From: an uncultured Pseudomonadota bacterium
GTDB lineage: Bacteria; Myxococcota_A; Polyangia; Fen-1088
Direction of reading: 5' to 3'
Assembly (NCBI GenBank): GCA_963831685.1
Contig: CAWHRJ010000014.1
Span: 94,612-158,611 of the forward strand
Length of the DNA: 64,000 nucleotides
Shown: piece by piece, positions 49,395 to 53,129 of the stretch
How the letters are laid out: each line of letters opens with the position of its first letter
Position numbering within the stretch: position 1 is the stretch's first letter
The notes under the pieces: model-generated
Seen by the model: the letters and a program-made list of their open reading frames with translations, nothing else
What the model was told of the DNA's origin: nothing
The model's database searches: none
Made by a program: the position numbers and the translations under genes

Positions 49395-49459
49395 TCAGGC
49401 GGCGGTCGTGGCGCGGCCGCGGCGGACGCCGAGGAGCGGCGCCAGGAACTGGCCGGTGT
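49395..49459. repeat. 65-bp exact direct repeat (copy 1) of the uvrA 3' terminus
   Basis: Identical to 50202-50266, which holds the last 21 codons plus the stop of uvrA. Together the copies bracket the vapBC cassette. Confidence 0.9.
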
Positions 49460-49492
49460 GCGGCTCGAAGACTTCCAGATTGCTCGGGGCCG

Positions 49493-49900
49493 TCAGGCGC
49501 GAGGCAGAACCTCGGCGCCGGTGAGTCCGAGGTGGTGGTCGGTGGACCAGACCTTGCGGATGCGGTGGCGATCCATGAAGCAGAGGCTCGACGCGTCGAC
49601 GTAGGTGAGCTTCGAGCCACGGAGGCGGTCAAGCATCTTTTCCACCTGCCCGTGGTGGGCTCGGTCGACCTCGAAGATTCGGAGACCGTCGAGGCTGTCG
49701 ATGAGGCCGCGAAAGTTGCGCGCGGCTTCTTCCCCCTCGCGGTGCAGAAACCAAGCGTAGGTTTCGCTGACGACCAGGTAGGAGGTACACCAGCGCGGCG
49801 TCCGTCCCCCGAACAGCACGATGGCCTGCGCGTGCCATTGATCGCGCGCCGCGAGGAGGGCCACGAAGATTCCCGAGTCCAGGAAGACCGCGTCGGTCAC
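49493..49900 (-). CDS. vapC: PIN-domain toxin VapC
   Basis: 135 aa starting MTDAVFLDSGIFVALL, with conserved PIN acidic residues. Start overlaps the upstream antitoxin stop (ATGA). Confidence 0.75.
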   Translation of the reverse strand: MTDAVFLDSGIFVALLAARDQWHAQAIVLFGGRTPRWCTSYLVVSETYAWFLHREGEEAARNFRGLIDSLDGLRIFEVDRAHHGQVEKMLDRLRGSKLTYVDASSLCFMDRHRIRKVWSTDHHLGLTGAEVLPRA

Positions 49901-50124
49901 GGCCGATCGCGCCCGTAGACGATCTCGTCGACGGACACGCTGTCTTCAGGGCGGCCTTCGACGATCCCGGCGTACTTCATCCAAGGCTTGTCGGTCGGCT
50001 CCCGCGCAATCATGTCCTCGAGGCTCTGCCGGCAGAGCTCGGCCAGCGAGATGCGCCGCCGTCGGGCAACTCGCTTGGCCTTGTCGTAAAGGTCGCGCTC
50101 GACCGAGATCTGCGTCCGAATCAT
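49897..50124 (-). CDS. vapB: Ribbon-helix-helix antitoxin (VapB/CopG-like)
   Basis: 75 aa starting MIRTQISVERDLYDKAKRVARRRRISLAELCRQSLEDMIAR, an RHH fold. Translationally coupled to vapC. Confidence 0.65.
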   Translation of the reverse strand: MIRTQISVERDLYDKAKRVARRRRISLAELCRQSLEDMIAREPTDKPWMKYAGIVEGRPEDSVSVDEIVYGRDRP

Positions 50125-50201
50125 GTTATCACCATACCACATGATGATAACATCGACCACCGACCGAACGAACGGGGGCCCGAGAACCGCGTGTCGGTCG
50201 T

Positions 50202-53129
50202 TCAGGCGGCGGTCGTGGCGCGGCCGCGGCGGACGCCGAGGAGCGGCGCCAGGAACTGGCCGGTGTACGAGCCGGTGGCGCGGGCCACCTCCTCGGGTGT
50301 CCCGGCGGCGACGATCTCGCCGCCGCGCGCGCCGCCTTCGGGGCCGAGATCGATCACGTAGTCGGCGGTCTTGATGACGTCGAGGTTGTGCTCGATGACC
50401 AGCACGGTGTTGCCGGCGGCGACCAGGCGGCCGAGGACGGAGAGCAGCTTGCGCACGTCCTCGAAGTGCAGGCCGGTGGTCGGCTCGTCGAGGATGTAGA
50501 AGGTGCGGCCGGTGTCGCGCTTGGCGAGCTCGCGCGACAGCTTGATCCGCTGCGCCTCGCCGCCCGAGAGCGTGGTCGCCGACTGGCCCAGCGCGATGTA
50601 GCCGAGGCCGACGTCGGAGAGCGTCTGTAGGATTCCGCGCAGCTGGCGGTGGTGCTCGAAAAGGCCCGCTGCGTCGGCGACGGAGGTCTCCAAGACGTCG
50701 GCGATGCTGCGCTCCTTCCATCGAACCCGCAGCGTCGCCTCGTTGTAGCGGCGGCCGCGGCAGACCTCGCAGGTGACGTAGACGTCGGGCAAGAAGTGCA
50801 TCTCGACCTGGCGGACGCCGTCTCCCTCGCACGCCTCGCAGCGGCCGCCGCGCACGTTGAAGGAGAACCGCCCCGGCTGGTAGCCGTAGGCGCGCGCCTC
50901 GGGGGTCTGCGCGAAGACGTCGCGGATGGCGTCGAACGCCTTGGTGTAGGTGGCGGGATTCGAGCGCGGCGTGCGACCGATTGGGTTCTGGTCGATGTCG
51001 ATCACCTTGTCGAGCTGCTCGATCCCGGTGACGCCGGCGTGCGCGCCGACCTGATCGTAGGCGCCCAGCAGCTTGCGGCGCAGGGCCGGTTGCAGGATCC
51101 CGCCGATGAGCGACGACTTGCCGGCGCCCGAGACGCCGGTGACGGCCACCAGCACGCCCAGCGGGATCGCCACGTCGAGATTCTTGAGGTTGTGCTCGCG
51201 CGCGCCCTTCACGTGGACGAAGCCCGACGGCTTGCGCCGGACGCGCGGGACCTCGATCCGCTCGGTCCCGGCCAGGAACTTTCCGGTCAGCGACGCCCGG
51301 TTCGCCTTGAGATCGTCGGGCGTCCCCTCGGCGACGACGCGACCGCCGAGGCGGCCGGCGCCGGGGCCGAAGTCGACCACGTGATCGGCCGAGTCGATCG
51401 TCTCGGCGTCGTGCTCGACGACGATGACGCTGTTGCCGAGGTCGCGCAGGCGGCGCAGCGTGGCGATGAGCCGCAGGTTGTCCCGCTGGTGCAGGCCGAT
51501 CGACGGCTCGTCGAGCACGTACATGACGCCCGACAGCTCGGACCCGAGCTGCGAGGCGAGGCGGATCCGCTGCGCCTCGCCGCCCGACAGCGTGGCCGCC
51601 GCGCGATCGAGCGTCAGGTACTCGAGCCCGACGTCGAGCAGGAACCCGAGCCGCGCGTTCACCTCCTTGAGGATCTCCGTGGCGATCTGTGCGCGTGCGC
51701 CCTTCAACCCCAAGCTCCCGAAGTGCTTCGATGCGCCGGCGACGGTCATGGCCGTCACCGCGACCAGGCTCTTCTCCGCCAGCACGACCGCGCGCGACTC
51801 GGGGCGCAGCCGCTGGCCGTTGCAGGCGCGACAGACCTGGTCGCGGAAATACTTTCCGTACCACTGGCGCGTCACCTCGGAGCTCGACTCCTGCATCCGC
51901 TTCTTGATGGTGTTGACCACCCCGGAGAAGCGCATGGCCCACGATCCGGCGCCGTGCTTGCCGTTCCAGCTGACCTTGACCCGCTTTTCGCCGGCCCCGT
52001 ACATGATGATCTCGCGCTGGCGCGGGGTCAGGTTCTTCCAGGGCTTGTCCAGCGGGATGCCGAACTCGCGCGACACGGCGTTGGCGACGTTGGCGGTCCA
52101 GCCGCTGTCGCGCCCGGCGCGGTCGCCCCACGGCTCGATCGCCCCCTCGCTGATCGTGCGGCTGCCGTCGGGGACGATCAGATCCGGATCGATCTCCAGG
52201 CTCGACCCAAGGCCGTTGCAGTCGACGCACATGCCGAGCGGGCTGTTGAACGAGAATGACTGCGGCGACAGCTCGGGGAGCCCGACGCCGCAGTCGGGGC
52301 AGGCGCGCGCCTCGCTGTAGGCGCGCTCGCGCGCCTCGCCCTCGACGGCGACCAGCACCGACCCGCCCCCGACCTTGACGGCGGTCTCGACCGAGTCGGT
52401 CAGCCGCGCGCGCTCGCCGGCGTCGATGCTGACCCGGTCGATGACCACTTCGATCGTATGCTTCTTCTTCTTGTCGAGGCCCGTCACGTCCTCGAGCCGC
52501 TGGATGAGCCCGTTGATGCGCACGCGCGAAAACCCCGCCTTGCGCGCCTCCTCGAACACCTCGCGGAACTCCCCCTTGCGGTTGTCGGCCTTACGGGCCA
52601 TCAGCGTCGCGCGCGTCTTGGCCGGGAGCGTGAGCAGCTCGTCGACGATCTCCGCCGCCGAGCGCGCAGAGACCTCGCCGCCGCAGAGGTGACAGCGCTG
52701 CTCGCCGGCGCGCGCGTAGAGCACGCGCAGGTAGTCGTAGATCTCGGTCACCGTGCCGACCGTCGAGCGTGGGTTCGACGACGCCGACTTCTGCTCGATG
52801 GCGATCGTCGGTGACAGCCCGCGCAGCTGCTCGTACTTCGGCTTCTCCATCTGACCGAGAAACTGCCGCGCATAAGAAGACAGCGACTCGACATAGCGGC
52901 GCTGCCCCTCGGCGTAGAGCGTGTCGAACGCCAGCGACGACTTTCCCGATCCCGACACGCCGGTGAAGACGACCAGCGCCCTTTTCGGTATCTTCAGCTC
53001 ATCAATGGCCAGGTTGTGCTCCCGCGCCCCCTTCACGACGATGAAGTTCGGTTCGTCTGCCGATCGCCGGGCGCCCAGCGGCGTCGGTGTCGTCTCCTTG
53101 CGGTTCAACGTCGTTTCTTTGCGGCTCAC
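50202..53129 (-). CDS. uvrA: Excinuclease ABC subunit A
   Basis: 975 aa. Two ABC ATPase modules ([12 protein letters not shown]; [10 protein letters not shown]), zinc-finger insertions, and full-length UvrA homology. The final 65 bp are duplicated at 49395-49459. Confidence 0.9.

Follow-up and report, generated by a model that had tools for sequence, protein, structure and literature searches.

A vapBC Toxin-Antitoxin Module Beside uvrA in an Uncultured Polyangia Bacterium: Most Likely the Scar of Homology-Driven Recombination between Strains

The 64,000-nt stretch analysed in this study (the window) is part of contig CAWHRJ010000014.1 (assembly GCA_963831685.1, positions 94,612 to 158,611 of the forward strand) of an uncultured bacterium of the Polyangia. 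The window carries a vapBC toxin-antitoxin (TA) module bracketed by a perfect 65-bp direct repeat of the uvrA 3′ end. Comparison with related genomes showed that the locus is a genuine insertion, consisting of a site of the type found in the closest relative (L024 in our labelling of related loci) plus 807 bp. The insertion is real and recent, and it most likely goes back to ordinary recombination between strains through shared homology rather than to a self-mobile element. A fragment of approximately 0.8 kb from a chromosome that already carried vapBC beside uvrA probably entered a chromosome without it through homology at the uvrA end; we put the probability of this at roughly 60%. The features discussed below are listed in Table 1.

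Table 1. Features of the insertion, its flanks and the related loci. Coordinates are those of the window, except for L008. Gene orders are given in window orientation.
Feature	Coordinates	Strand	Remarks
ECF-type (extracytoplasmic function) sigma-factor gene	47064..47948	+	Pfam Sigma70_r2 and r4; start coordinate approximate
Putative lipoprotein, YncE/beta-propeller type	48031..49389	+	452 aa; 100% identical to P0121
Repeat copy 1, orphan duplicate of the uvrA terminus	49395..49459	-	Ancestral position kept
Novel joint 49459/49460 (the only one)	49455..49462	.	uvrA end joined to sigma remnant; flanks match different haplotypes
Unique part of the insert	49460..50201	-	742 bp; 807 bp counting one repeat copy
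Sigma-end remnant (s′)	49463..49478	+	Last 16 nt of the sigma-factor gene, stop TAG changed to CAG
vapC, PIN-domain toxin	49493..49900	-	135 aa; GTG start; Pfam PIN
vapB, putative ribbon-helix-helix antitoxin	49897..50124	-	75 aa; open reading frame (ORF) from sequence
Inverted repeat GTTATCA-N13-TGATAAC	50125..50151	-	Presumed operator/promoter; abuts the vapB start codon
uvrA stop-vapB spacer, old junction J1	50125..50201	-	77 nt; homologous to the spacers of filled haplotypes
Repeat copy 2, functional uvrA 3′ terminus	50202..50266	-	Continuous with the rest of uvrA
uvrA, intact	50202..53129	-	975 aa; Pfam UvrA_inter 1e-32, UvrA_DNA-bind 2.6e-32
Filled relative L002			VapC 98% aa to window; sigma> HIT> DUF3455> <vapCB <uvrA
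Filled relative L026			VapC at least 90% aa (same 90% cluster); sigma> HIT> <vapCB <uvrA
Filled relative L021			VapC 85% aa; sigma> <vapCB <uvrA
Filled relative L007			VapC 71% aa; other genes, then <vapCB <uvrA
L008 repeat copies	2442-2547 and 3238-3343 of L008		Each is the DUF2442 gene 3′ end, the stop codon and 5 further nt

The Direct Repeats and the Empty Sites

The two repeat copies are identical at 65/65 nt. A search allowing up to 3 mismatches returned these 2 matches in the window and 0 in 100 dinucleotide-preserving shuffles, and no other exact repeat in the 64 kb is longer than 34 nt. The similarity reaches 71 nt with 2 mismatches (49392-49462 and 50199-50269). The GC content of the unique part is 64.7%, against 69.2% for the window. 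The initial annotation, made from the sequence alone, had described two identical copies with only vapC and vapB between them, the first lying just past the stop of an unrelated lipoprotein gene. All of this was borne out: the window has only two copies, vapC and vapB are the only credible genes between them, and copy 1 starts 5 nt past the lipoprotein stop codon TAG (49387-49389). One detail needed correction, as copy 2 holds not the last 21 codons and the stop of uvrA but the stop, 20 complete codons and 2 nt of the next.

Empty-type relatives were found through homologs of the lipoprotein. Five related Polyangia contigs (L010, L011, L012, L024 and L025) carry the lipoprotein gene and uvrA adjacent and converging, as in the ancestral arrangement; in each of them the segment occurs once and vapBC is absent. 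The empty-site comparison proposed in the initial annotation thus gave a clear positive result, and the same duplication without an insert was seen in none of the relatives compared. In L024, positions 7368-7432 align to both window copies. This 382-kb contig is the closest relative (UvrA 98% aa identity, uvrA synonymous divergence (dS) 0.15) and is collinear with the window over 40342-56161, except for the present insert and a window-only block at approximately 44146-45942. Its single segment differs from the window copies at 2/65 positions, and that of L025 at 1/65. Copy 1 adjoins the lipoprotein stop in the same way as the single segment does at the empty sites of L024, L025 and L012. The census of the locus showed that five contigs have the lipoprotein and an empty site, four have vapBC without lipoprotein or duplication, and the window alone has all three.

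The ENA contigs L024, L025 and L026 have uvrA and other genes split into several short ORFs by frameshifts, with the DNA still colinear. They look error-prone and, by contig naming, are possibly long-read assemblies, so their per-base identities to the window are underestimates.

Filled Relatives and the Age of the Junction

A scan of the genome collection with VapC returned only 7 loci, none of them from the source genome. Four relatives (L002, L007, L021 and L026) are filled, with vapBC directly after the uvrA stop and a homologous spacer between them. The spacers of L021, L002 and L007 are recognisably homologous to that of the window in alignment, and blastn runs unbroken from uvrA into vapBC in L002, L007 and L026. 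No second copy of the uvrA end was found in any of the four. Because the filled relatives share the junction and spacer and have no duplication, the uvrA-vapBC junction long predates the 65-bp duplication. A non-coding copy of that age should carry several changes, and copy 1 carries 0/65, which makes the duplication much younger than the linkage of vapBC with uvrA. As judged from the sequences, the duplication is young relative to this linkage unless gene conversion has kept the copies identical.

Compared with L002, the window has a dS of 0.64-0.67 in vapB and vapC and of 0.35 in uvrA. Co-divergence of vapBC with uvrA was tested and is absent: the dS of vapBC is about twice that of uvrA, and the L007 and L021 alleles are far more diverged. 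The comparison thus gives no indication of a simple vertical history of vapBC together with uvrA. An ancestral tandem form, of which the empty and filled forms would be deletion products, was also rejected, as the repeat is perfect yet those lineages stand at dS 0.15-0.44 from the window.

The Far End of the Insert and the Novel Joint

Homology among the vapBC loci begins approximately 45 nt before the vapB start and ceases a few nt after vapC ends. The window tail beyond vapC is 33 nt long (49460-49492, CGGCCCCGAGCAATCTGGAAGTCTTCGAGCCGC) and contains GCTCGAAGACTTCCAG. Its source family is the sigma-factor gene, whose 3′ end encodes ...VKSLEDF*; the remnant in the tail agrees with the sigma-gene ends of L021, L011 and L012 at 13/16 positions. 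The matching sigma gene lies upstream of the lipoprotein gene in the window and in the empty forms, and in L021 only 1 nt separates the end of this gene from the vapC stop. The probability of the match is approximately 4e-4 (about 4 in 10,000 random window 33-mers or tail shuffles), with the target chosen post hoc. The scrap of sigma gene at the end of the insert indicates that the insert is a piece of another chromosomal haplotype, without defined element ends.

Only one joint in the locus is new. The junction of the uvrA stop with the spacer pre-exists in the filled forms and that of the uvrA stop with the lipoprotein stop in the empty forms, which leaves 49459/49460. A GGTG(T) microhomology is possible at this joint when ACGGTGAAG of L021 is compared with CCGGTGTACG of uvrA, L021 being used here in place of the actual donor. 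With s for the sigma end, L for the lipoprotein, V for vapCB and u for the uvrA end, the window order is s L u followed by s′ V u. Read in this way, both alternative alleles sit in tandem in the window.

The edge of the repeat is the uvrA stop, approximately 1-3 nt from where similarity between filled and empty forms ceases. A repeat edge at the end of similarity is predicted by homology and not by a staggered cut. Capture of the fragment between two breaks staggered by 65 nt and then filled in, with no role for homology, is quite unlikely. Such an event would need a chance cut exactly at the uvrA stop and a fragment starting exactly at the post-uvrA spacer of other genomes, and we know of no enzyme that makes such cuts. 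The idea does draw on a documented pattern, as long, variable duplications without mobility genes, often across stop codons, are described for restriction-modification (RM) systems (PMC2853133), and L008 offers a 106-nt example with the present vapBC family.

The L008 locus lies on a metagenome-assembled genome (MAG) contig labelled Thermotogae. It carries a vapBC of the same family (64-66% aa identity) between 106-nt direct repeats that are 87% identical and spaced 796 nt apart. The upstream copy is in a 5′-truncated DUF2442 ORF, and a DUF4160/DUF2442 pair follows. The sequence gives L008 the same geometry as the window, at an unrelated target gene. Flanking repeats were sought at 11 other vapBC loci of the family and found only in L008, being absent at the ten others (four at uvrA and six elsewhere). 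The flanks available to this search were short in L003 and L005 (191 bp downstream), and L004, with only 20 bp of upstream flank, was excluded.

Site-Specific and Mobile-Element Alternatives

The initial annotation read the locus as a small mobile cassette that had integrated in the manner of an attachment (att) site and regenerated the uvrA end. Of this reading, the insertion and the intact uvrA stand; a discrete site-specific element that regenerates the end is not supported, given the repeat-free filled sites and the sigma scrap. In a related form of the idea, vapBC would be a non-autonomous element with an att site matching the uvrA 3′ end, moved by a tyrosine or serine recombinase acting in trans. 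The direct repeat spanning a gene end and the existence of an empty site are what such an element would leave, and the vapBC alleles of 71-98% aa identity at the same post-uvrA position in four other genomes could reflect repeated targeting. We nevertheless consider it very unlikely. The four other filled sites have no second copy, and their homologous spacers point to one old insertion. The L008 repeat, compared by eye, shares no obvious sequence with the 65 bp, and the window insert terminates in part of a chromosomal neighbour gene. The insert holds no recombinase, only vapB and vapC. On the flanks of the collinear relative L024, the called genes include no recognisable recombinase either, although several of them have no Pfam match. 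The 579-aa gene found only in the window also has no Pfam match.

Other classes of element were rejected. The insert-end alignment for terminal inverted repeats scored no better than shuffles. A DNA transposon or insertion sequence was dismissed on the lack of terminal inverted repeats and of a transposase, and on a duplication of 65 bp rather than a short one. The repeat has no attC-like fold (z -0.11 relative to shuffles) and no integrase was found, which excludes an integron gene cassette. An integrase-type island would agree with an empty site holding one copy, but there is no recombinase, no common att core and no shared element ends. Retro-insertion and Xer/dif-type insertion were dropped; no reverse-transcriptase gene or dif-like site was noticed, although no search was aimed at either.

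Proposed Mechanism

Among these soil Polyangia, the sigma-uvrA interval exists in alternative forms. The empty form is sigma> lipoprotein> <uvrA, and of the several filled forms that of L021 is sigma> <vapC <vapB <uvrA. In the recombination that we favour, the incoming fragment would have spanned approximately 19 nt of the sigma 3′ end, vapC, vapB, the 77-nt spacer and at least 65 nt of the uvrA end. By one route, the fragment may have recircularised, with the joint at 49459/49460, and then entered the chromosome through one RecA-type crossover in the 65 bp, as in Campbell-type integration. By the other, homology-facilitated illegitimate recombination (HFIR), the uvrA side would have paired by homology and the other end would have been joined illegitimately 65 nt inside uvrA. 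Either route would duplicate the homology and spare uvrA, which still has its end on the upstream side of the insert and so stays intact. Circle and HFIR give the same product, from which the two routes are indistinguishable. In E. coli, substrates with one-sided homology gave mostly single-crossover integrants of recircularised molecules, with anchor duplications of 109-950 bp (PMC3240628).

A diverged donor tract, which HFIR with a distant donor should leave, was sought in the 3′ part of uvrA and not found. The window gene is L024-like throughout, at 93-99% nt identity per 100-nt window all the way to the stop. As no diverged tract is visible, the donor uvrA end was identical or the copies were later homogenised; we infer a donor with an identical end. 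The resulting structure would be unstable. VapC toxicity on loss of the cassette may penalise pop-out between the repeats and help the structure to persist.

Several points weigh against this mechanism. The assemblies L024-L026 are noisy. The exact 33-bp tail was found in no donor haplotype, and its proposed origin depends on a short post hoc match. The 65/65 identity needs a donor closer than L024 or L025 at the uvrA end, or later gene conversion. The identical uvrA ends contrast with a sigma remnant that differs from the sigma end of the window itself. Sigma alleles are 77-81% identical between the forms, and the contrast can be resolved only by a strong difference between the sigma alleles of the forms or by a remnant that had already decayed in the donor. 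A length of 65 bp is close to the lower range for efficient RecA recombination. The mechanism also presupposes natural DNA uptake, which is not established for these bacteria, and the joint 49459/49460 is known from the assembly only.

The diverged remnant would also be accounted for if the transfer ran in the opposite direction. An empty-type fragment (sigma, lipoprotein and the last 65 nt of uvrA) would then have entered a window lineage that already bore vapBC, by homology on the sigma side and an illegitimate join just past vapC. Clean replacement of vapBC would have been lethal through the toxin, and only recombinants retaining it would have survived. This history ends in the same structure with a single illegitimate joint, and replacement with extra DNA is the classical outcome of HFIR. 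It is unlikely all the same, for the closest relatives L024 and L025 are empty-type and collinear on both sides with similar identity, so that the simplest history is a gain of 807 bp, and the step of selection by addiction is only postulated.

The contig is derived from a metagenome, and both haplotype classes are represented among assemblies whose ENA accession numbers lie close together, possibly from one project. An assembly artefact that merged two co-occurring strain haplotypes is, for all that, highly improbable. A graph merge of the two forms cannot make a mutated sigma remnant or the joint 49459/49460, which needs sequence absent from both parental arrangements. Typical reads are longer than the repeat, and L008 shows the same geometry independently. 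Entry of a filled-type fragment into an empty-type chromosome remains the reading that we prefer.

The vapBC Module

The PIN domain (PF01850) of VapC scored 38.8 bits against a cut-off of 23.6 (E 1.7e-9, residues 5-124). VapC also gave a full-length match to VapC20 of M. tuberculosis (5wzf), and its residues D8, E46, D102 and D121 align with the acidic positions of the VapC20 motifs FVD, GET, VDATS and FDGD, which we take to be catalytic, as in PIN domains generally. VapB scored 17.1 bits with Pfam RHH_3, under the cut-off of 21.6, and its match to VapB26 has an E-value of only 0.3. The vapB stop and vapC start overlap by 4 nt (GTGA). The module resembles M. tuberculosis VapBC20 and VapBC26 in having a PIN toxin with four acidic residues, a small antitoxin gene upstream, a 4-nt overlap and a presumed palindromic operator. 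It differs in that its proteins are distant in sequence (E 5e-4 to VapC20) and the antitoxin fold is recognised only below threshold. A search of NCBIfam with the two proteins gave no match, and no plasmid homologs of the module were found. Records with exactly the sequence of the window VapC or lipoprotein, or of P0121 or P0255, were sought without result.

The pairing of vapB with vapC is constant in 11 related loci. The inverted repeat upstream of vapB is present in 9/11 family loci including the window; L003 does not have it, and the L004 contig is cut off there. A promoter and terminator scan of the insert detected no sigma-70 consensus promoter and no terminator. The dN/dS of vapC against L002 is approximately 0.015, and that of vapBC about 0.015-0.03. 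Together with the dS values, this indicates that the vapBC alleles are old and have been kept by purifying selection.

At the uvrA site, these alleles have a mosaic look. The coding regions of L002 are nearest to those of the window (96-98% aa), yet its promoter/operator (CTTGCCGGTGTTATCACT.AATGTTAT.GTGATAAC) is near-identical to that of the distant L007 allele, which has 71-74% aa identity to the window (L002:3023-3105 and L007:5711-5777 compared with window 50125-50201). This suggests recombination within the vapBC cassette. A second, different PIN-domain pair was found in L023 (9552-10194 of a MAG contig), 4 kb from the vapBC of the family. It comprises a 137-aa PIN protein and an 81-aa upstream gene and lies next to argS; TA modules are clustered near a housekeeping gene there too.

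Neighbouring Genes

The gene sets of window 44146-47028, and of the uvrA-proximal interval to 50201, vary between relatives. From the left conserved block, which ends near 44145, to the 3′ end of uvrA, the locus is a hot spot of gene swapping. Relatives differ in how they combine vapBC, HIT, DUF3455, a 354-aa gene, the sigma factor and the lipoprotein there. An extra 1.8 kb (44160-45899), present in the window alone, encodes a 579-aa Cys/Gly-rich, secreted-looking protein without a Pfam match.

On the other side of uvrA, a Spherulin4-family protein (53281-54639) has a Gly/Thr/Ser-rich N-terminal linker with 18-bp tandem repeats and a 34-nt exact repeat (window 53436-53496 and 53565-53634). L007 does not have the region of this gene (window 53281-56215).

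In L001 (5863-5927 of a 2.29-Mb contig), a remnant of approximately 45-60 nt of the sigma-gene 3′ end (...FVPEMAKSLEDF*) precedes an ortholog of the lipoprotein, and the sigma gene itself is absent. This ortholog (85% aa) has another neighbourhood, with an unrelated 347-aa gene upstream, GGDEF downstream and no uvrA. The L001 lipoprotein is another gene that moved together with a scrap of its upstream neighbour.

Comparison with Known Systems

Insertion with long target duplication was reportedly described for RM gene complexes by Nobusato et al. in 2000 (Gene 259:99). Its hallmarks in RM units are an insert of less than 20 kb, no mobile-element genes, a duplication of more than 30 bp and a related genome with the empty site; in many cases a stop or start codon lies within the repeats and the target gene is left intact (Furuta, Abe & Kobayashi 2010, PMC2853133; reviewed in PMC3874152). 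The window has the form of this class, with 807 bp inserted, a 65-bp repeat, no mobility genes and empty sites. It likewise involves a small addiction-type unit between direct repeats of more than 30 bp, single at the empty site. The match is in form only, as the cargo is a type II TA pair and not an RM system. Breakage by the restriction enzyme was suggested for the RM cases, whereas the "target duplication" of the window is homology shared with the previous chromosomal neighbour of the cargo. On this reading of the sequences, the repeat is an inherited homology arm, a mechanistic clue not given for the RM cases.

HFIR and single-crossover integration are said to have been the subject of work by de Vries & Wackernagel in 2002 and by Prudhomme et al. 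in 2002. The window shares with Campbell-type integration and HFIR the one-sided homology, the one illegitimate joint and the duplicated anchor (Amarir-Bouhram et al. 2011, PMC3240628). It differs in being a natural event deduced from genome comparison, with an anchor of 65 bp, in a host related to myxobacteria. Integrase islands and prophages that occupy the 3′ end of a tRNA or protein gene are similar in that a 3′-end repeat brackets the insert, the gene is intact and the empty site has one copy. Unlike them, the window has no integrase, conserved element ends or common att core, and the other occupied sites are repeat-free.

In displacement arrays of type VI secretion system (T6SS) effector-immunity pairs, Rhs and contact-dependent inhibition (CDI) genes, entry occurs by upstream homology and an illegitimate downstream joint, leaving orphan gene fragments (Kirchberger et al. 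2017, PMC5361080). These fragments resemble the sigma-end and DUF2442-end scraps described here. The window differs in that its anchor is an unrelated housekeeping gene and nothing was displaced, the alternative allele being kept in tandem.

Significance

The window reveals no new kind of mobile element and no new biochemical activity. It is a clean natural example in which empty sites, alternative occupied sites and a scrap of donor context occur together. It illustrates how an addiction module can be added beside a repair gene of essential function, which is left undamaged, by host recombination alone. The class of insertion with long target duplication would thereby be extended from RM systems to a TA pair, and an explanation is offered for the class: the duplicated "target" may be a homology arm from the previous neighbour of the cargo.

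We speculate, while regarding it as rather unlikely, that the TA cassettes of this family, like the RM units studied by Kobayashi, have a recombinase-free life cycle with a portable homology arm formed by the end of a neighbour gene. If so, the cycle would run from insertion by host recombination, through long direct repeats, to pop-out as circles, with loss penalised by toxin release. Allelic replacement at variable loci would be biased to tandem retention, and the window (65 bp, uvrA) and L008 (106 nt, 87%, DUF2442) would be two snapshots of the cycle. For the soil Polyangia, the finding marks the sigma-uvrA interval as a hot spot at which alternative gene sets are swapped.

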